Positions 1 to 44,285 of a DNA stretch of 44,549 nt are shown here, piece by piece. The stretch is from Defluviitaleaceae bacterium. GTDB lineage: Bacteria > Bacillota > Clostridia > Lachnospirales > WRAX01. Numbering within the stretch: the first letter of the stretch is position 1; every line of letters starts with the position of its first letter. Location: the NCBI GenBank assembly GCA_009780485.1, contig WQZZ01000003.1, forward strand, positions 1-44,549, read 5' to 3'. The notes under the pieces are model-generated. The model was not told the origin of the DNA. It worked only from the letters and a program-made list of their open reading frames with translations, and made no database searches. The position numbers and the translations under genes were made by a program.

Positions 1-945
1 GATGCCATGATAATTTTAAGGGCAGCAGAACCAAAGATTGAAGAAGCAAACCCCGAAAACCAGTTTCATTATCATTATAACAAAGGCATTACTTTAATGT
101 TTTTAGAAGATTACAAAGAAGCATTAAAGCACTTTTCTATGGCGTACGAGCTTGACTATGTTGAAGTAAAACCCCATGCACATATGATACATTATAATAT
201 GGGACTTTGTTATTCGAAGCTTGGTGTGTGTATTCGTGCTATAACCCAATTTGAGACAGCATATAATTTGTTGGATAGGGAACAACCTTATTATTTTGCT
301 ATGTTTATAAGCAACAATCTTAGTGTTGAATATATTAGGGCGAAGGATTTGGGGCTTGCAAAAAAGTACATAGGCAAAACCCTGCGTCTAGCAGTTAAAT
401 TAGGTGATGAGAAGCATTATCAGTTAGCCTTGCAAAATGCAGGCTGTGCTAACATAAAAGAAAATAAATTTGAAAAAGCATTGGAATATTTTGAAAAATC
501 ACTTGATTACGCAGAAGAAGGCGAAAACTCATACTTTGATACTCTATTCTATAAAATGTTTTGCCTAATCTCATCAAAACACCCATCTGCAGAATTGGAA
601 CTATCTGTAGCAATGCTAACATCTAAAGATAACAATCACTTCTTAACACTCTTTGTAGCCCTCTCTCATCTCAAAGACCTCAAAAGCGAAGAAGCTGAGG
701 ATTTCATCGAAAACTCAACCATCCCTTGGTTGATGAAAAGAAAGGAATACTACAGAATTCAGTACATATACCAGTTTATGATAAACCATTACACTGAACT
801 CGAATACGAGGATAAGGTACTTGAAGTACAAGCTAAATCCGATGACTTGTACAAAACAATGTTATTAGGAGGTGAAGAATTTGAAGAAGAAGAAGAAATT
901 GACTTGCTTTCTATTGACTTTAATACTAGTAAGCCTAGCGACTAA
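1..945 (+). CDS. TPR regulator of RRNPP-like type, 5'-truncated at the window edge; paralog of 33654-35003
   Basis: Frame open from base 1. TPR repeats (ALKHFSMAYEL, AITQFETAYNL, ALEYFEKSLDY). Long stretches are near-identical to the complete HTH-TPR on the minus strand. Confidence 0.85.
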   Translation, partial: DAMIILRAAEPKIEEANPENQFHYHYNKGITLMFLEDYKEALKHFSMAYELDYVEVKPHAHMIHYNMGLCYSKLGVCIRAITQFETAYNLLDREQPYYFAMFISNNLSVEYIRAKDLGLAKKYIGKTLRLAVKLGDEKHYQLALQNAGCANIKENKFEKALEYFEKSLDYAEEGENSYFDTLFYKMFCLISSKHPSAELELSVAMLTSKDNNHFLTLFVALSHLKDLKSEEAEDFIENSTIPWLMKRKEYYRIQYIYQFMINHYTELEYEDKVLEVQAKSDDLYKTMLLGGEEFEEEEEIDLLSIDFNTSKPSD

Positions 946-1030
946 CATGACCTTAATTGCAGAGGGACAAAGTCCACCTCTACCATACCCACACTCAATC
1001 ACCATCCCTTGTATAAACCTAGAACAATAA
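881..1030 (+). CDS. Secreted propeptide 1 (49 aa) MKKKKKLTCFLLTLILVSLATNMTLIAEGQSPPLPYPHSITIPCINLEQ
   Basis: GGAGGTG RBS at 868-874 and TTG start. Lys-rich N-region plus hydrophobic H-region. Overlaps the regulator 3' end. Four homologs in the window. Confidence 0.8.
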   Translation: MKKKKKLTCFLLTLILVSLATNMTLIAEGQSPPLPYPHSITIPCINLEQ

Positions 1031-1258: not shown

Positions 1259-1408
1259 TTGAAGAAGAAGAAGAAATTGACTTGCTTTCTATTGACTTTA
1301 ATACTAGTAAGCCTAGCAACTAGCATAACCTTAATTGCAGAGAAACAGGGTCCACCTCTACCATACCCACACTCAATCACCATCCCTTGCATAAACCTAG
1401 AACAATAA
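1259..1408 (+). CDS. Secreted propeptide 2 (49 aa) MKKKKKLTCFLLTLILVSLATSITLIAEKQGPPLPYPHSITIPCINLEQ
   Basis: GGAGGTG RBS and TTG start. Intact frame. C-terminal 18 aa identical to propeptide 1. Confidence 0.78.
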   Translation: MKKKKKLTCFLLTLILVSLATSITLIAEKQGPPLPYPHSITIPCINLEQ

Positions 1409-30813: not shown

Positions 30814-32649
30814 TTACCCAAAAAATTCCTCATACCAAAGCAAAAACATATAAATCGTCCAAATTTTACGGCTGTTGTCTACTTTACCAAGGCGGTGGGC
30901 ATCCAGCAAAGAAGTCAGTTTATCAACTCGGAAAAACTCCTGTGCCACCGCACTTTCAAAGGTCTTTTTAACACGAGAATAATAAGCATCGTCTTTCAGC
31001 CAAAGGCGTATAGGCACAGGAAACCCAAGCTTCTTTTTCTGCGACCACTTTGGCTGAAGATACTTTGCCGCAACCAACCTAAAGGCGTATTTCGTTACCT
31101 TTTTCGTAACCCTAAATTCTGTAGGCAATTGGGACGCAACAGCAAAAACTTCCTTGTCCATATAAGGCACACGCCCTTCCAGTGAATGTGCCATGGTCAT
31201 CTTATCAGCTTTCAGCAAAATATCTCCCACAAGCCATGTGTGAATGTCCAAAAACTGCATTTTCGTAACATCGTCATAACCTACCGTCTTTGCGTAAATC
31301 GGAGCGGTTACGCTTCGGGTGGTAGGCTCGCCTGTTCCTATACGCAAAATGTTACGTCGCTCTGCTTCACTGAAAATTTTGGCATTACCTATATAACGCT
31401 CCTCCAAATCCATAGAACCACGCAAAAGAAAGTTGCGACCACGAAAAGCTGGCAATTTACCAGCAACCTTGCCGATGCCACGGCGTAAAAACCTAGGCAA
31501 CACAGAAATTGGTCGCACAGATTTTGGCTCTTGGTAAATATTATAACCACCAAACAATTCATCCGCACCTTCGCCACTCAAAACCCCTTTAACGTGTTGA
31601 CTTGCCACTTGGCTGACAAAATATAAAGCAATGGCAGCGGGGTCTGCCAAGGGTTCATCCATATGATATTGTATCTTGCCCAAATTATCCCAATATTCTG
31701 CCGTTGAGATAATTTTGCTATGGTTTACAATCCCCAAATCCTTAGACAATTCCTCGGCATAACCAATCTCATTGTAACCCTCATAATCAAAACCAACTGT
31801 AAATGTCGCATCCCCACCAAACCGTGCGGCAACAAGACTAGAATCCACCCCGCTGGACAAAAACGAGCCAATCGGCACATCAGACACCAAATGAGCCTTT
31901 ATAGACCCCCCCACAACCTCATCAATCTGCTCCACTGCTGAATTTAAGGCACTTTCACGCTCCGACTTGGATACCTTACGGGATGCCGAAAATTCCGCTT
32001 GCCAATACCGCTCAATCTGCACTTCTCCATTCTTAAATCTCATAAAATGGGCAGGCGGAAGCTTATGAACCCCCTTCAACATACATTCATCCAAAACCGA
32101 ATATTGAAAAGACAAATAAGCAGACAAAGCATCAAGGTTAATTTCCTTCACAAAATCTGGATGTTCCACCAAAGATTTAATTTCAGACCCAAACAGCAAT
32201 TCGCCGCCAAAAATGCCGTAATAAAAGGGCTTTATACCAAAATAGTCACGGGCAACAAAAAGCTCACCTATGTCACGGTCGTGGATGACAAAGGCAAACA
32301 TCCCCCGCAGTTTATTCAACATTTCGCTACCATATGTGGCGTAAAGGTTCAGCAAAACCTCGGTATCACTATTAGTCGTAAAGCTGACACCTTGCCCTTG
32401 CAATTCCTCCCGCAAGGTTTCATAATTATAAATCTCGCCATTAAAAACAATTGTATATCGACCATCCGCCGTGGTCATTGGCTGGTTGCCATGCTCCAAA
32501 TCCAAAAACGCCAGACGGCGAAAACCAAAATTTACCCCATCCGCCGTAAAATAACCCTCGCCATCAGGTCCACGGTGGGCAATTTTATCAGTCATAGCCT
32601 TCAAAACGGCGTTGTTTTCACGCCCTGTAAATCCTGTAAATCCGCACAT
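30814..32649 (-). CDS. asnB: Asparagine synthase (glutamine-hydrolysing)
   Basis: MCG N-terminus, HRGPD, FNGEIYN, SSGVDSS, SGEGADELFGGY. Confidence 0.95.
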   Translation of the reverse strand: MCGFTGFTGRENNAVLKAMTDKIAHRGPDGEGYFTADGVNFGFRRLAFLDLEHGNQPMTTADGRYTIVFNGEIYNYETLREELQGQGVSFTTNSDTEVLLNLYATYGSEMLNKLRGMFAFVIHDRDIGELFVARDYFGIKPFYYGIFGGELLFGSEIKSLVEHPDFVKEINLDALSAYLSFQYSVLDECMLKGVHKLPPAHFMRFKNGEVQIERYWQAEFSASRKVSKSERESALNSAVEQIDEVVGGSIKAHLVSDVPIGSFLSSGVDSSLVAARFGGDATFTVGFDYEGYNEIGYAEELSKDLGIVNHSKIISTAEYWDNLGKIQYHMDEPLADPAAIALYFVSQVASQHVKGVLSGEGADELFGGYNIYQEPKSVRPISVLPRFLRRGIGKVAGKLPAFRGRNFLLRGSMDLEERYIGNAKIFSEAERRNILRIGTGEPTTRSVTAPIYAKTVGYDDVTKMQFLDIHTWLVGDILLKADKMTMAHSLEGRVPYMDKEVFAVASQLPTEFRVTKKVTKYAFRLVAAKYLQPKWSQKKKLGFPVPIRLWLKDDAYYSRVKKTFESAVAQEFFRVDKLTSLLDAHRLGKVDNSRKIWTIYMFLLWYEEFFG

Positions 32650-32675
32650 ATCTTTCTCCTTTGTATCGTCCGTGG

Positions 32676-33134
32676 CTACACCAGTCCGTCAAACCCCGTT
32701 TGTCTTAGGGCTTCATATAAGATTATACCCACAGAAACAGACAAATTTAACGACCGCCCATCACTTTTCATAGGAATTGTAATAATTTGGTCGGGGTACT
32801 TATCCAAAACTTGGCGGGGCAACCCCTTGGTTTCCCGCCCAAATATTATAAAGTCATTTAATTGATATTCAACCTCATCATAACGCTTTGTACCGCCAGT
32901 TTCCGCCAAAAACACCCTAGCATTGGGGTTTTGGCTCAAAAAGTCGTCAAAATCCTTGTATTCTGTAATGTCGATTTGTTTCCAATAATCCAGCCCGCTT
33001 CGCTTTAGGCTTTTTTCGTCCATAAAAAAGCCCAGAGGGTGAATTAAATGAAGCTTTGCCCCCGTCAAAAGGCAGGTGCGTCCCACCGCCCCTGTGTTGT
33101 GTGGGATTTCTGGTTCGTGCAAAACAATATTCAC
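32676..33134 (-). CDS. trmL: tRNA (cytidine/uridine-34 2'-O)-methyltransferase
   Basis: PEIPHNTG, RSGLDYW, FGRETKGL, RSLNLS. Confidence 0.95.
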   Translation of the reverse strand: MNIVLHEPEIPHNTGAVGRTCLLTGAKLHLIHPLGFFMDEKSLKRSGLDYWKQIDITEYKDFDDFLSQNPNARVFLAETGGTKRYDEVEYQLNDFIIFGRETKGLPRQVLDKYPDQIITIPMKSDGRSLNLSVSVGIILYEALRQTGFDGLV

Positions 33135-33220
33135 GTTACAGCCCCCGTCAATGGTTTAATCTGCCACTCAGCATAACACAAACGGACAAGGGTTTCAAGT
33201 GGAATTTTATATGCGGGTGT

Positions 33221-33292
33221 TTTGGTGTGGACGGGCAATGCCTGCCCACACCAAAAACAAACCCCTCCATCGACAGTTGCGTGGAGGGGTTT
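33221..33292. repeat. REP-derived hairpin plus companion hairpin
   Basis: TTTGGTGTGGACGGGCA/TGCCTGCCCACACCAAA and AAACCCCTCCA/TGGAGGGGTTT. The core of the second also occurs at 1137-1158 and 1531-1552. Confidence 0.65.
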
Positions 33293-33298
33293 GGTATG

Positions 33299-33396
33299 GT
33301 AGGGGCGGGCATTGCCCGTCCCAGTTCGACAGGCAATGCCGTACAACCATTGAGATTAGTGCCAGCAGAAATGGGACGGGCAATGCCCGCCCCTAC
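33299..33396. repeat. GTAG-family REP doublet, 98 bp
   Basis: Reverse complement of 1037-1134. Confidence 0.85.
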
Positions 33397-33403
33397 CAGC
33401 ATG

Positions 33404-33544
33404 TTATTGTTCTAGGTCTATGCAAGGTATGATAATTGAGGTTGGAATTGGTAAGGGTTCGCTCTCTTCCTGTGCAATCACAGTAATGCTAGTTGCGGTT
33501 ATCACTAGCAGAGTTAACAGGAGACAAGTTAATTTCTTCTTCAT
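33404..33544 (-). CDS. Secreted propeptide 4 (46 aa) MKKKLTCLLLTLLVITATSITVIAQEESEPLPIPTSIIIPCIDLEQ
   Basis: RBS AGGAG, ATG start, signal-peptide pattern, homologous to propeptides 1-3. Confidence 0.82.
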   Translation of the reverse strand: MKKKLTCLLLTLLVITATSITVIAQEESEPLPIPTSIIIPCIDLEQ

Positions 33545-33562
33545 ATTTTTCAACTCCTAATA

Positions 33563-33709
33563 TTATTGTTCTGTGTCTAGGTCTGGGCAAGGTATAATAA
33601 TTGAGGATGGAATTGCTACGGGTTCGTTTTCTTCCTGCGCAATCACAGTAATGCTAGTTGCGGTTATAACTATCAGGGTCAATAGGAGGAAGGCTAGTTT
33701 CTTCTTCAT
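33563..33709 (-). CDS. Secreted propeptide 3 (48 aa) MKKKLAFLLLTLIVITATSITVIAQEENEPVAIPSSIIIPCPDLDTEQ
   Basis: RBS AGGAGGTG, ATG start, overlaps the regulator 3' end, signal-peptide pattern. Confidence 0.82.
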   Translation of the reverse strand: MKKKLAFLLLTLIVITATSITVIAQEENEPVAIPSSIIIPCPDLDTEQ

Positions 33710-35003
33710 AATCTTCACCTCCTAGCAACATTATTTTGTATAAGTCATCTGACTTGATTTGTATTTCAAGTAACCTTTCCTTGTTTCCAAGTTCGGTGTA
33801 ATGTTTTTCCATCAAATTATATATGTATCTAATTCTGTAGTATTCTTTTGTTTGCATTAAGTGAGGAATTGCTATGTTTTCAATAAAGCGTCGTGATTCA
33901 CTTTCTTCAAGCGTTAGGATATGAGAAAGGGATGTAAAAAGCAAGTAAAAATGGCTGTCATCTTGTGACAATAGTTTTGCAACGGCTATTTCATCTTCGG
34001 CAAATGGGTTTTTTAATGAGATAAAGCAAATTATTTTGTGATATAAAATATCAAGGAAAGAACGTTCTTCTTTTGTTACAAATGTAAAGGCTTCTTCAAA
34101 GTATTCCAATGCTTCTTTGAATTTGTTTTCTTCCATGAGGACACTACCCGAATTTTGCAAGGCTCTTCTCTGGCGTATTCCGTCTCCCAACTTCAATGCT
34201 AGACGCATTGCATCATTTATGTACTTTTTAGCAAGCCCCAAATCTCTCGCCCTAATGTAATTAACACTAAGGTTATTGCTTATAAGCATGGCAAAGTAAT
34301 AAGGCTGCTCCCTGTCCAACAAATTATATGCCGTCTCATATTGAGATATAGCACGAATACACATACCAAGTTTTGAATAACAAACCCCCATATTATAATG
34401 TATCATATGTGCGTGGGGTTTCACTTCAACATAATCAAGCTTGTACGCCGTAGAAAAGTGTTTTAGTGCTTCTTTATAATTTTCTTCAAATATCAAGATA
34501 GTGCCTTTATTAAAATGATAATGGTACTGGTTTTCGGCATTTGCTTCCCCAATCTTTGCTTCTGCTTCCTTTAAGACTGGTATAGCCTTGTCAACCCTGT
34601 TTACGTTAATAAAATATTTAACAAGAACCATATTATAAAGCATAGACAAATCCAAACCAACAGGCAAAACATCATACTTTTCTAAATGAAACTTATCATG
34701 GTATGCCCTTGCATCTTTTAATTTTCCATTACTTATACGGGTTCTCCACAAACGCAAAATCTTTTCAACATCACCATCACCAAATCTATCGGCTGGTTCC
34801 ATTTTGTCTACCTTATAAAATTCTAAAATTTTTCTTATTTGTTCTTTTGTATACTTGTCTTTACCTTTTTCAATCACCTCTATGGTTTTTACATCCCAAC
34901 CTAAAATCTTCGCAACCTCTTCTTGGTTGCCACCCATGGTTTTGTAAATATACTGCACAATAGAAGCAGTAGGCATTTTAAGGTCTAATGGCATACTTAT
35001 CAT
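33654..35003 (-). CDS. HTH-TPR transcriptional regulator (RRNPP-like), 449 aa
   Basis: N-terminal XRE-like HTH (NQEEVAKILGWDVKTIEVIEKG) plus a TPR array. RBS GGAAGGGGG. Confidence 0.85.
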   Translation of the reverse strand: MISMPLDLKMPTASIVQYIYKTMGGNQEEVAKILGWDVKTIEVIEKGKDKYTKEQIRKILEFYKVDKMEPADRFGDGDVEKILRLWRTRISNGKLKDARAYHDKFHLEKYDVLPVGLDLSMLYNMVLVKYFINVNRVDKAIPVLKEAEAKIGEANAENQYHYHFNKGTILIFEENYKEALKHFSTAYKLDYVEVKPHAHMIHYNMGVCYSKLGMCIRAISQYETAYNLLDREQPYYFAMLISNNLSVNYIRARDLGLAKKYINDAMRLALKLGDGIRQRRALQNSGSVLMEENKFKEALEYFEEAFTFVTKEERSFLDILYHKIICFISLKNPFAEDEIAVAKLLSQDDSHFYLLFTSLSHILTLEESESRRFIENIAIPHLMQTKEYYRIRYIYNLMEKHYTELGNKERLLEIQIKSDDLYKIMLLGGEDYEEETSLPPIDPDSYNRN

Positions 35004-35064
35004 TATGTAACAACCCCCTTCCAAAAAATTCTGTAAATATAACACTTATTTACTATCTAAGCAC

Positions 35065-35093
35065 AATATACCACACCATCCGACCCATGTCAA
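35065..35093 (-). promoter_or_regulatory. sigmaA promoter of the HTH-TPR gene
   Basis: TTGACA-17-TATATT with TG, conserved at 44199-44227. Confidence 0.75.
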
Positions 35094-35206
35094 GAAAAAT
35101 TTACAATTTTTTTGAATTTTTTTTCGACAATTTTTTTGGCTTAAAATCCTCTTTACAAATTGATGCCTTTGGTGTAACATTAAAGGCGAAAGGGTGGCGA
35201 ACGCCT

Positions 35207-35980
35207 ATGAAAGAAAATGACACCGTAAAGGTTGCCGTTGCCGCTGGGGAAATTATGCTGTCGGCTGGGGCAGAAACCATGCGTGTGGAAGAAACCATGT
35301 ACCGCATGATGGAAGCTAAAGGGCTTACGGAAATAGAGTCCTTTTGCACCACAACGGGCATCTTCGCCTGTGCCACAGGAAGCGATGACGAGGTTGTAAC
35401 CGTTATCAAGCGTGTAAAAGTGCGTGATAATAATTTGGAGAAGATTGCCAAGGTAAACGAGCTGTCACGTTGTTTTGTGGAAGGGCGTTTGGACGAAAAA
35501 ACCGCAATGAAAGAATTGAATAATATTCGTCATTTGCTGCCATATCCCAATTTGTTGCGGATTGTTGCGGCGGCGGTTGCCAGCCTTTGTTTTGCTTATA
35601 TGTTTGGTGGTACGTGGGTAGATGCTGTAAACACCTTAATTACGGCAGCCCTAATGCAAGTTCCTGTGATATTTTTGGAGCGTCGGCGGGTTGTGCCTAC
35701 CCTTGTAACTATTGCGGGGGGTGCTTTTGGTACGTTGTTTGCACTTACTTTACTTAATCTCGGCATTGGCGAGAATGTGGAGTTTATTATAACAGGGGCG
35801 ATTATGCCTCTTGTGCCTGGTGTTGCCCTTACCAATGCCATACGTGACATTTTGGATGGTAATATGCTGGCGGGGTCGGCACGTACTTTGGAAGCACTGT
35901 TAACCGCTGTTGCCATTGCTGCTGGTGTTGGTGTTGTACTTACCTCTTGGATGGCTGTGTTTGGGGGTGTTTTCTGGTGA
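35207..35980 (+). CDS. ThrE-family threonine/serine exporter subunit
   Basis: GAETMRVEET, VNELSR, PLVPGVALTNAIRD. Confidence 0.9.
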   Translation: MKENDTVKVAVAAGEIMLSAGAETMRVEETMYRMMEAKGLTEIESFCTTTGIFACATGSDDEVVTVIKRVKVRDNNLEKIAKVNELSRCFVEGRLDEKTAMKELNNIRHLLPYPNLLRIVAAAVASLCFAYMFGGTWVDAVNTLITAALMQVPVIFLERRRVVPTLVTIAGGAFGTLFALTLLNLGIGENVEFIITGAIMPLVPGVALTNAIRDILDGNMLAGSARTLEALLTAVAIAAGVGVVLTSWMAVFGGVFW

Positions 35981-36411
35981 TTGTTGGTCTTGTTTTGGCG
36001 GCTGTGGCAACGATGGGTTTTTCTGTGATTTTTAATGTGCCACGGCGAGAGCTGGTTTTTTGTGGCGGGGTTGGTGCTGTGGTTTGGCTTGTGTTTGGCA
36101 TCATAACCCACTTTTTGCCAGAAGGGACAGTTGCCGCTACGTTTTTTGGTGCGATGACCGCAACCGCTTTGGGTCGGTTTTTAAGTGCCATTCGCAAAAT
36201 GCCGTCCACTGTGTATATGATACCAGGTATTATACCGCTTGTTCCTGGTGTTGCCATTTACCGTACCATGTTTTATGTGGTTACAGGGGAGCATATGCTG
36301 GCGGTTGCCCAAGGGGTGTATGCCCTGTCTTTGGCGGGGGTTATATCTGTGGGTGTGCTAATTATCCTGTCTTTGCCACGCAAAATATTCTCGATAGGGA
36401 AGGGGACTTAG
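35977..36411 (+). CDS. ThrE_2-family exporter subunit
   Basis: FSVIFNVP and PGIIPLVPG. GTGA overlap with the upstream gene. Confidence 0.88.
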   Translation: MIVGLVLAAVATMGFSVIFNVPRRELVFCGGVGAVVWLVFGIITHFLPEGTVAATFFGAMTATALGRFLSAIRKMPSTVYMIPGIIPLVPGVAIYRTMFYVVTGEHMLAVAQGVYALSLAGVISVGVLIILSLPRKIFSIGKGT

Positions 36412-36461
36412 TTGTTGGAAGTATTGTTGATTTTAGAAATAAAAGTCTAGGAGGAATAGAA

Positions 36462-37688
36462 ATGAAAAACAATGTAATTGTTGGACAGTCAGGTGGACCA
36501 ACCGCCGTGATAAACTGTAGCCTTGCAGGGGTTTTTTCGACCGCAGTGGCAAACCCCAAAATGGGTAAGGTGCTGGGTATGCGTAATGGCGTGCAAGGTC
36601 TTTTAGAGCGCCGTGTAATTGATATGGGGGAGCATCTGCGTCGTGATATTGACGTGGAGGTGCTGAAGCGCACGCCCTCGTCGTTCCTTGGTTCTTGTCG
36701 TTATAAACTGCCAAATCCAGAGCAGAATGAAGATGTTTTCGCCAAATTGTTTGGTATTTTGGATGAGCTTGATGTGGGTTACTTCTTTTATATAGGTGGT
36801 AATGACTCCATGGACACCATTATGAAGCTTTGTGCCTATGGCGAGAAAATTGGTAGTAATATCCGTTTTATTGGTGTTCCGAAAACTATTGATAATGATT
36901 TGGCTGTTACCGACTCCAGCCCTGGATTTGGTTCTGCGGCGAAGTATGTGGCAACAACCACAAAAGAGCTGATTTTGGATGCACAAGTGTATAATAACGG
37001 AGCTGTAACCATCGTTGAAGCCATGGGGAGAAACACTGGTTGGCTTGCTGCCGCTGCGTCCCTTGCTAAAGGGACGGATTCCCCTGGTCCTGACCTAATT
37101 TTCTTGCCAGAAATCGCTTTTAATATGGATGATTTTTTGGATAAAGTGTCGGTTCTTGCCCAGAGCCATAGCCCGACCATCGTTGTGTCAGAAGGTATCA
37201 AACTGGCTGATGGAAGGTATATAAGCGAGCTTGGGCGGGATAATGTTACAAGTGACGCTTTCGGTCATATCCAACTAACAGGGACAGCCGCATATTTGGC
37301 GGCACAAGTTCGCAGTAAGCTTGGGGCAAAAACCCGTGCAATTGAGTTTTCTATTATGCAACGCTGTGCCGCTCACATCCAATCCGCCAGCGATGCGGCA
37401 GGGGCATTTGCTGTGGGGTCTCACGCTGTGAGGGCTGCTGCTGATGGGGAGACCAACCGTGTAATTATCATCAACCGCTTAAACAGCACCCCCTACGCTT
37501 TCGAGACCTGTGCCATGGAAATTGTAAAAATGGCAAATATAGAAAAAACTGTTCCGCTGGACTGGATAACTTCCACCAAAGACTATGTAACTGGGGACTA
37601 TATCGACTACGCCAAACCCCTAATTCAAGGGGAGGTTGCTCCGTTTTATGTGGATGGCACACCACGCCATATCCGCACCGCAAAGTAA
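36462..37688 (+). CDS. pfp: Phosphofructokinase, probably PPi-dependent
   Basis: GQSGGPTAVIN, GGNDS (Asp at the PPi-specificity position), PKTIDND, MGR. Confidence 0.85.
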   Translation: MKNNVIVGQSGGPTAVINCSLAGVFSTAVANPKMGKVLGMRNGVQGLLERRVIDMGEHLRRDIDVEVLKRTPSSFLGSCRYKLPNPEQNEDVFAKLFGILDELDVGYFFYIGGNDSMDTIMKLCAYGEKIGSNIRFIGVPKTIDNDLAVTDSSPGFGSAAKYVATTTKELILDAQVYNNGAVTIVEAMGRNTGWLAAAASLAKGTDSPGPDLIFLPEIAFNMDDFLDKVSVLAQSHSPTIVVSEGIKLADGRYISELGRDNVTSDAFGHIQLTGTAAYLAAQVRSKLGAKTRAIEFSIMQRCAAHIQSASDAAGAFAVGSHAVRAAADGETNRVIIINRLNSTPYAFETCAMEIVKMANIEKTVPLDWITSTKDYVTGDYIDYAKPLIQGEVAPFYVDGTPRHIRTAK

Positions 37689-44056: not shown

Positions 44057-44198
44057 AAAACAGCCTCCTTATGCTATTAATTTCTTAATAAGACATAGTT
44101 TTTCCACGAAACTGCAAGCAATGCCCGCCAAATTTTGTTATAGAATTTTAAGCCAAAAAATTTGTCGAAAAAAAATTCGAAAAATTTGTAAATTTCCC

Positions 44199-44227
44199 TT
44201 GACAGGGGTCGGATAGTGTGGTATATT
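44199..44227 (+). promoter_or_regulatory. sigmaA promoter of the third HTH-TPR paralog
   Basis: TTGACA-17-TATATT with TG. Confidence 0.75.
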
Positions 44228-44285
44228 GTGTTATGTAGGAAAGAAATGCTATATTTACGGAATATTTTTGGAAAGGGGTAATTAT

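Follow-up and report, generated by a model that had tools for sequence, protein, structure and literature searches.

A putative RRNPP-type signalling cassette with two tandem Cys-containing propeptide genes in a termite-gut clostridial genome

What is encoded by a regulator gene with a helix-turn-helix (HTH) and tetratricopeptide repeats (TPRs) that is followed by two very small open reading frames (ORFs), and what might two such peptides do that one does not? A locus of this kind lies on contig WQZZ01000003.1 of a Defluviitaleaceae bacterium (assembly GCA_009780485.1), all 44,549 nucleotides (nt) of which were analysed and are called the window below. The source genome (G000) is a metagenome-assembled genome (MAG) of 2.04 Mb in 169 contigs, which is 85.7% complete. 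RRNPP receptors have an N-terminal HTH in all subfamilies except Rap, and next to their genes lies that of a propeptide of 10-100 residues with a Sec signal. An initial annotation had read the locus as such a cassette, and had suggested that its two peptides might act as agonist and antagonist or as a self and a cross-talk signal. We find that the locus is, with a probability of roughly 0.8, a genuine RRNPP-type signalling cassette. Its two peptide genes most likely either raise the output of a single signal or yield two that differ slightly, and would represent a 'chatterer' or duplication-divergence intermediate.

The receptor gene, pep1 and pep2 lie in series on the minus strand (33404-35146) and form a single operon-like unit (Table 1). 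This is the layout given in the initial annotation, which had missed that pep1 overlaps the receptor gene and that the two peptide genes form a 165-nt direct repeat. The start of pep1 is found 56 nt ahead of the receptor stop in another frame, resulting in a 56-nt overlap with the receptor 3' end, and the stop of pep1 is separated from pep2 by a gap of 18 nt. Each small ORF has, as claimed, its own ribosome-binding site, AGGAGGTG for pep1 and AGGAG for pep2. The former is embedded in a C-terminal (L/F)GGE motif of the receptor, whose G and E are invariant in all six aligned receptors. The G+C content of the cassette is ~31-39% vs ~44-50% in its flanks.

Both peptides start with MKKK and continue with ~19 hydrophobic residues up to V-I-A, after which QEE follows. 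Cleavage after V-I-A would fit the -3/-1 rule, in agreement with the signal peptide and cleavage site proposed initially. By this heuristic the receptor is thus adjoined by two predicted secreted-propeptide genes. The predicted pro-regions, QEENEPVAIPSSIIIPCPDLDTEQ in pep1 and QEESEPLPIPTSIIIPCIDLEQ in pep2, are both acidic and Pro/Ile-rich, and they differ at 5 positions and by a 2-residue indel. We also considered that the peptides might be lipoproteins and rejected this, since they are without a lipobox and the Cys is C-terminal.

A comparison of the two peptide genes over 44 aligned codons reveals 10 synonymous changes on 33 sites and 9 non-synonymous changes on 99 sites (pS 0.303, pN 0.091, pN/pS 0.30; Fisher p 0.007), and pN/pS is 0.13 in the signal peptide. 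This pattern suggests that both copies are under purifying selection; the third-position excess is not significant by itself (p 0.15). The exact pep1 sequence is present in the protein collection as P0166 with NCBI/nr among its sources, indicating that some gene caller had found it, whereas the exact pep2 sequence is absent from this collection. The initial description of both peptides as unannotated therefore applies to pep2 but not to pep1. A peptide-profile search of 5.8 billion clusters matched only pep1, the peptide encoded on contig C34 of the source genome and P0170, a protein from another metagenome. P0170 agrees with pep2 at 31/46 positions overall and at 16/17 positions of the C-terminal stretch. 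Since the C-terminal match outstrips the overall match, this stretch is conserved and hence probably the active part of the peptide.

The receptor scores above the Pfam cut-offs for TPR_12, TPR_2, TPR_1 and TPR_8, and its N-terminal HTH is recognized with a borderline HTH_3 score; in a precomputed list its paralogue P0003 carries PF01381. No specific family for the receptor was found in an NCBIfam search. The AlphaFold2 (AF2) model (predicted local distance difference test score (pLDDT) 87.1, predicted template modelling score (pTM) 0.82) has four short helices in residues 13-63 and is all-helical from 79 to 428. Residues 431-450, the stretch that overlaps pep1, have a pLDDT <50, and in this model the last ~20 residues look like a disordered read-through tail without a structural role. 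A profile built from six receptors (alignment A2) was run against all PDB sequences. Designed TPR proteins rank first, and the best natural match is NprR of Bacillus thuringiensis (5dbk/4gpk; E 6e-23), which aligns in one stretch to profile positions 72-399. RapF, RapJ, RapH and Rap3T follow at 1e-11 to 1e-5. Foldseek with the AF2 model likewise places apo NprR on top (E 6.5e-9), and pheromone-bound phi3T Rap reaches a template modelling (TM) score (target) of 0.77 and Rap proteins up to 0.78. Pfam, the model and the fold matches thus agree on a TPR-type peptide-binding superhelix, and the proposed RRNPP-type relationship is borne out by both searches.

The peptide contacts of NprR are Y193, N194, E241, S274, N275, N306 and D309, of which the N275 contact is reported to be conserved in all RNPP proteins (PMC3763537; here and below, published systems are described from the accessible parts of the cited papers). 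In the HMMER alignment, in which chain numbering equals NprR numbering minus 59, receptor N204 ('HYN') aligns with N194 and N284 ('LQN') with N275. Both are invariant in all six A2 receptors, and N284 provides the equivalent of the Asn that bonds the peptide backbone. Moreover, D309 aligns with D318, whereas E241 and N306 align with R251 and a Ser, respectively. Of the three Asn motifs that had been put forward as contacts, HYN and LQN are therefore retained, but SNN aligns with no reported NprR contact. A complex prediction for the TPR domain (residues 72-430) and the last 30 residues of pep1, made with alignments and without controls, gave a score of 0.00, which counts neither for nor against binding. 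By sequence profile and model, the receptor belongs to the NprR/Rap branch of RRNPP receptors. It is not an NprR orthologue, since identity in the fold alignments is 16-18% and the Arg126 switch of NprR is not conserved.

We then looked at how the cassette is distributed, using C numbers for contigs, L numbers for receptor loci and G numbers for genomes. Eleven receptor matches in the source MAG resolve into eight genes. Three of them form clade A together with the receptor under study, to which they are 58-72% identical: one on C34 (58%) and two near-identical copies that are split over contig ends. The 5' parts of the latter are found at the C38 end and the window 3' end, the 3' parts at the window 5' start and the C35 start. 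Both ends of the window contig thus fall within receptor paralogues. The near-identical copies evidently broke the assembly, and it is therefore uncertain how many cassettes there truly are and how they are linked. The four other copies (C8, C25, C49, C110) are distant, with 27-29% identity. At all eight receptor 3' ends, including those of the distant copies, a homologous ORF with an MKKK signal lies at the stop or overlaps it, and three of the eight ORFs start with TTG. The C25 receptor (C25:11666-13060) has an in-frame TAA after ~147 codons and an intact peptide ORF downstream; either the receptor is decaying and its peptide gene has survived, or the TAA is a sequencing error.

Beyond the source genome, the receptor was detected in 8/19 other genomes of the GTDB family, with 1-8 matches each. 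It is present in 20/401 genomes of the order sample (G000 counted), where it is confined to three families (8/19, 10/40 and 1/7), and was not found in the other families searched. An automatic pass identified 40 receptor genes with an intact 3' end, 28 of which were flagged as having a proximal signal-peptide ORF. Curation excluded L013, whose ORF is truncated to 25 residues, and L049, whose 25-residue ORF lies inside the receptor and is without a pro-region; it included L031, which the automatic filter had missed and which was added on direct inspection of the locus. The curated set has a peptide ORF beside the receptor in 27/40 genes from the three families. In larger collections, a word-index search returned 5 receptor matches and the 3 peptide matches given above, and a full HMMER scan found 448 receptor cluster representatives at E<=1e-30, which come without genomic context. 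A receptor-alignment scan of the genome-contig collection for related loci gave no match. The only source name seen for a relative's receptor is 'helix-turn-helix transcriptional regulator'. Judged by their conservation, the small ORFs seem to be genes rather than products of chance.

How did the second peptide gene arise? The repeat comparison shows that it is the product of a tandem duplication of a 165-nt unit, which takes in ~20 nt from the end of the structured part of the receptor along with the Shine-Dalgarno sequence. Since the latter and the start codon of the peptide gene are located inside the receptor 3' end, the duplicated unit had to carry the receptor tail. Here, in the sister cassette at the window start and in relatives, each repeat unit takes along a piece of the receptor 3' end. 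An assembly artefact was rejected as the source of the duplication because the copies are 82-88% identical and are on one unitig. This unitig (33372-34416) covers both peptide genes and occurs with zero differences in two termite-gut metagenome DNA runs, which may themselves be the source of the window. They were the only sequencing runs holding the stretch, and no RNA run was among them.

The sister array (881-1408) has two copies in a 378-nt unit, 95-100% identical, which holds ~100 nt of the receptor 3' end and a REP-like hairpin and is followed by a partial third unit. The difference between the 165-nt and 378-nt units points to separate, independent duplication events. Three copies were found in L015, four in L023, and two each in L027 and L031. 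In total, arrays of two to four copies occur in 6/27 peptide-bearing loci and a single gene is the rule, which disagrees with the idea that two non-identical peptides per receptor are a trait of the family. The last 20 residues are identical in both copies of the sister array, and two of the four L023 copies have the same last 15 residues. Diverged copies are pep1 compared with pep2, and the third L015 copy, which is without Cys. The identical C-termini of the sister array favour dosage or early divergence over a built-in agonist/antagonist pair. Such an array pattern is expected from a duplicate-then-diverge evolution of pherotypes and fits the published 'chatterer' idea; it does not single out an agonist/antagonist design, although it would be compatible with one.

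Taken together, these features suggest the following mechanism. One transcript from a strong sigma-70-like promoter would encode a cytoplasmic HTH and TPR receptor together with two propeptides, whose genes would be translationally coupled. After export by Sec and cleavage behind V-I-A, extracellular trimming would reduce each ~22-24-residue pro-peptide to a short pheromone, hydrophobic and rich in Pro/Ile, that stems from the conserved core P-x-P-[ST]-S-I-I-I-P-C.... This pheromone would return into the cell through an Opp-type permease; three OppA-type binding proteins score above the Pfam cut-off in the source genome. It would then be bound in the concave TPR groove, its backbone bonded by N204 and N284, and this binding would switch the oligomeric state of the receptor and its DNA binding. 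The two copies would either boost a single signal or give rise to a pair of slightly different ones, addressed to the receptor and its three close paralogues.

Several points weigh against this interpretation. What we observe are the gene structure, homology and fold, the conserved Asn, the conservation of the ORFs and the recurrence of arrays, whereas secretion, processing, import, binding and regulatory output are inferred. The signal peptides and their cleavage site were judged by a hydrophobicity heuristic and the -3/-1 rule. The HTH_3 score of the receptor is 22.9 bits against a cut-off of 23.0 (0.1 bit under; E 8.6e-5). Activation of NprR by NprX requires R126, whose counterpart in the profile is Glu, and the activation switch must therefore differ from that of NprR. 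In 13/40 receptor genes there is no intact neighbouring peptide ORF or only a remnant of one, suggesting that some members are decaying or work without their own peptide. The neighbours of the cassette, trmL, asnB and a ThrE-like gene, offer no target gene for it. Finally, pN/pS is 0.91 in the pro-region, based on 8 changes only, which is compatible with relaxed or diversifying selection in this part of the peptides.

The last point bears on the initial proposal that the two peptides have opposed roles on one receptor, as activator and inhibitor (like cCF10 and iCF10 on PrgX), or that they serve as a self signal and a cross-talk signal tuned to a paralogue. The contrast between the pN/pS of the pro-region and the 0.13 of the signal peptide would be in line with this. 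So would the position of some differences right beside the invariant Cys (P vs I after the Cys, DLDTEQ vs DLEQ), the fact that the C-terminus type of pep2 is common to the C34 peptide and P0170 and that pep1 has diverged from it, and the presence of the three other clade-A receptors with similar peptides in the same genome. However, the hydrophobic core SIIIPC is the same in pep1 and pep2, the eight substitutions are a small basis for a ratio, and the shared C-termini in the sister array and in L023 indicate that arrays often encode the same signal. Moreover, duplicated Rap pheromones that were tested differ in affinity but elicit the same response (PMC11343458). We thus regard opposed or cross-talk roles as improbable. 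It is hardly credible that the small ORFs are chance frames without coding function in a 3' untranslated region or repeat. They are known from DNA alone, and the missing exact match for pep2 would agree with such an origin, but 27 loci have conserved homologous ORFs that are built in the same way, pep1 and pep2 differ by an excess of synonymous changes, the Shine-Dalgarno sequence is kept in both copies and the C-terminus recurs almost unchanged in P0170, a protein of an unrelated metagenome.

What, then, is the role of the Cys? It lies within the last 22 residues in 20/27 curated loci (20/28 as flagged automatically), vs an expectation of ~18% from the genome Cys content of 0.91%. The corresponding binomial p of 1e-9 is overstated, since paralogues are not independent. 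The Cys is invariant in clade A, where it is found 2 to 7 residues ahead of the acidic C-terminal tail, and is absent from C8 (tail), C25 and C49. We presume that a near-C-terminal Cys with an acidic tail loosely resembles AgrD. This, and the recurrence of the Cys, could speak for small ORFs that are not signals to the receptor but secreted end products under its control, such as a bacteriocin-like peptide, a Cys-modified ribosomally synthesized and post-translationally modified peptide (RiPP) or an Agr-like thiolactone. Some RRNPP regulators do control peptide biosynthetic clusters (PMC10075063). Yet a search of the genome, complete to 85.7%, gave no AgrB homologue that reaches the Pfam cut-off (best PF04647 score 15.5 bits vs 23 bits), and the thiolactone was rejected on these grounds. 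The leader is of the Sec type, MKKK-hydrophobic-AxA, and neither of the Agr nor of the double-glycine type. Beside the three cassettes checked there are no modification enzymes, immunity genes or peptidase-bearing exporters. With AgrB, an AgrD-type leader and adjoining modification genes all missing from these searches, a thiolactone or RiPP is unlikely. Furthermore, the strict one-to-one pairing at the receptor stop across paralogues of 27-29% identity is an RRNPP signature. Secreted end products are therefore very improbable.

A more speculative idea, which we consider unlikely as it stands, is that the mature pheromone keeps its Cys and is a redox-gated signal, with the arrays and ~8 cassettes providing fast-evolving 'dialects'. 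If so, import or binding in the steep oxygen gradient of the termite gut would be restricted to the peptide with a reduced thiol, and once oxidized to a disulfide dimer or a mixed disulfide, the signal would be silenced or altered. The cassette would in this way give a joint readout of cell density and anoxia, and tandem arrays with ~8 cassettes per 2-Mb genome would diversify 'dialects' by duplicate-then-diverge.

How does an RRNPP-type cassette of this kind compare with known systems? It resembles NprR-NprX of the Bacillus cereus group in its XRE-type HTH and ~9-repeat TPR receptor of ~420-450 residues, in the propeptide gene directly downstream on the same strand and in the two backbone-bonding Asn (N194 and N275, here N204 and N284); NprR is also the best natural match in the profile search and the top match in the fold search. 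It differs in the low identity of the receptors, in R126 and in the change of E241 to R251. Moreover, the peptides are unrelated to NprX (SKPDIVG) and bear a Cys, the peptide gene overlaps the receptor 3' end and is tandemly duplicated, and the hosts are termite-gut Clostridia, not Bacillus. That a TPR receptor can be accompanied by more than a single propeptide gene is known from the 'chatterers' among the Rap-Phr systems, where 71 Rap receptors have two neighbouring propeptide genes and 58 of these have differing mature peptides (Felipe-Ruiz et al. 2022, PMC9765709). They share with the present cassette the duplication-divergence logic (PMC9765709, PMC11343458) and the fold. However, Rap is without an HTH and acts on proteins, whereas the receptor here has an HTH, and the longest arrays here consist of three and four genes, each of them translated separately and each unit with a receptor 3' piece.

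Eight cassettes in one genome are also found in Clostridium acetobutylicum, whose QssA-H each consist of a Qsr regulator followed by a mostly unannotated signal-peptide ORF of 39-50 residues, Qsp (PMC7376267). The likeness, which is by description, concerns a Clostridia genome with eight paralogous HTH-TPR regulators, the same cassette number as here. Qsp peptides have Leu, Pro and Trp near the C-terminus, whereas the peptides here have Pro/Ile, usually Cys, and an acidic tail, and no tandem peptide genes are described in the accessible part of that paper (PMC7376267). In the plasmid collection, tblastn with the receptor as query returned no match from clostridia at E<=1e-5, the presence of pSOL1 in that collection being unconfirmed. 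A Cys-containing RNPP pheromone is PapRa7 (CSIPYEY) of the B. cereus PlcRa-PapRa system, in which PlcRa directly activates the AbrB-family regulator gene abrB2 (PMC3519770). PlcRa differs in being a 5-TPR PlcR-type receptor with papRa upstream. As a parallel, a protein of 76-90 residues that resembles AbrB/SpoVT and has a C-terminal CxxC...CxxC is encoded 200-800 nt downstream of five clade-B cassettes (genes listed are G000 C49:7475-7705, C110:6262-6471 and C1:22631-22858, and those at L022, L024 and L029). By this analogy it is a candidate direct target of clade-B cassettes; the clade-A cassette under study has no AbrB-like neighbour.

The features of the locus and of its partial relatives at the window ends are collected in Table 1.

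Table 1. Coordinates in the window of the cassette, its putative control elements and related features
Feature	Position	Strand	Description
Receptor gene	33654..35003	-	ATG at 35003, stop 33654-33656; 449 residues; N-terminal XRE-type HTH, then TPR superhelix
pep1, proximal propeptide gene	33563..33709	-	48 residues; C-terminus ...SIIIPCPDLDTEQ; MKKK...VIA signal peptide (predicted)
pep2, distal propeptide gene	33404..33544	-	46 residues; C-terminus ...SIIIPCIDLEQ
Shine-Dalgarno sequence of pep1	33716..33723	-	AGGAGGTG; 6 nt before pep1 ATG, within receptor L-G-G-E codons
Shine-Dalgarno sequence of pep2	33554..33558	-	AGGAG; 9 nt before pep2 ATG; copied along with duplicated unit
Tandem direct repeat	33402..33731		2 x 165 nt; 82% identical ungapped, 88% gapped
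Promoter-like site	35065..35093	-	TTGACA, 17 nt, TG-extended TATATT; 11/12 consensus matches, best in region
Imperfect dyad, candidate operator	35112..35127	-	A/T-rich, TCGAA-N6-TTCAA; just upstream of -35 hexamer
GC-rich hairpin	33373..33393	-	9 pairs (8 GC); 11 nt after pep2 stop; copy of genome-wide REP-like element
Sister cassette, cut by contig start	1..1413	+	Receptor 3' part 1..945; two TTG-started propeptide genes, 881..1030 and 1259..1408
Clade-A receptor paralogue, 5' part, cut by contig end	44286..44549	+	Receptor similarity

The promoter block is conserved across the four clade-A paralogues, and the dyad is perfect in those at the C38 end, the window 3' end and on C34. Identity of the -135..-50 block among the target, C34 and the two near-identical copies is 78-85% (94% for the near-identical copies with each other), vs 68-78% when these pairs are compared over their first 255 coding nt. 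The block (window 35065-35138; equivalents at C34, C38 end and window 44150-44285) contains a dyad of the TCGAA-N6-TTCGA type and two AAAAATTGT direct repeats. Judged by its sequence, autoregulation or a control shared by these genes might act at this block. At the other end of the cassette, the GC-rich hairpin is the probable transcript end. REP-like GC-rich palindromes with the core GGGCAATGCCCG / GGGCATTGCCCG are found after cassettes at window 33148-33402, 1026-1140, 1405-1515 and 1597-1639. The 12-mer core occurs 193 times on 76/169 contigs of the 2-Mb genome, and the element has short matches in congeners. This dense, genome-wide family may provide both terminators and recombination substrates.

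The neighbours of the cassette are different from those of its paralogues; the two sister cassettes that were checked adjoin uracil salvage genes and an ABC ATPase. Like trmL, asnB and the ThrE-like gene here, these are of a housekeeping type. The flanks in window 31000-37500, with asnB and trmL on one side and the ThrE-like gene and pfk on the other, are matched at 74-79% in two congeneric genomes (G013, G014), there on different contigs, and a synteny comparison of this region showed the cassette DNA to be absent from both. The locus is therefore variable within the genus, and the difference may be due to an insertion or a rearrangement, either of which fits. The phage collection contained no cassette match and the plasmid collection a single weak one (Terribacillus, 23% identity), which gives no sign of a mobile-element origin in these two collections. 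In L013 (G013:C31), from a congener, the peptide ORF is cut right after the signal peptide and its remainder is readable in another frame, and in L029 (G013:C6) only a degenerate MRKKIAVL... remnant is left. As read from these frames, both loci are apparent examples of peptide-gene decay that would leave 'eavesdropper' receptors.

Multiple neighbouring propeptide genes (Rap) and genomes with eight cassettes (C. acetobutylicum Qss) are already in print, and the cassette is a further family member rather than a new principle. What is newer is so by degree: the restriction of the family, as far as seen here, to uncultured termite-gut Clostridia, the recurrent Cys, arrays of up to four genes and a peptide gene that overlaps its receptor. 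In the literature on RRNPP systems and the termite gut we found no description of this receptor-peptide family, related members of which may be listed in the supplementary tables of PMC10075063 and PMC9765709. A large RRNPP survey covered complete genomes only, leaving MAGs still to be mined (PMC10075063).

RRNPP-type quorum sensing is well studied in Bacilli and a few clostridia, and hardly charted in uncultured gut anaerobes. Here, a 2-Mb genome devotes ~eight loci to one receptor-peptide family, in which the peptide genes would be translationally coupled to the receptor via a Shine-Dalgarno sequence in its conserved LGGE tail. Since genes of 46-50 codons are unevenly called, as illustrated by pep1 and pep2, the signalling capacity in MAG catalogues may be undercounted. 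The independent tandem duplications, finally, offer snapshots of how new pherotypes may arise.

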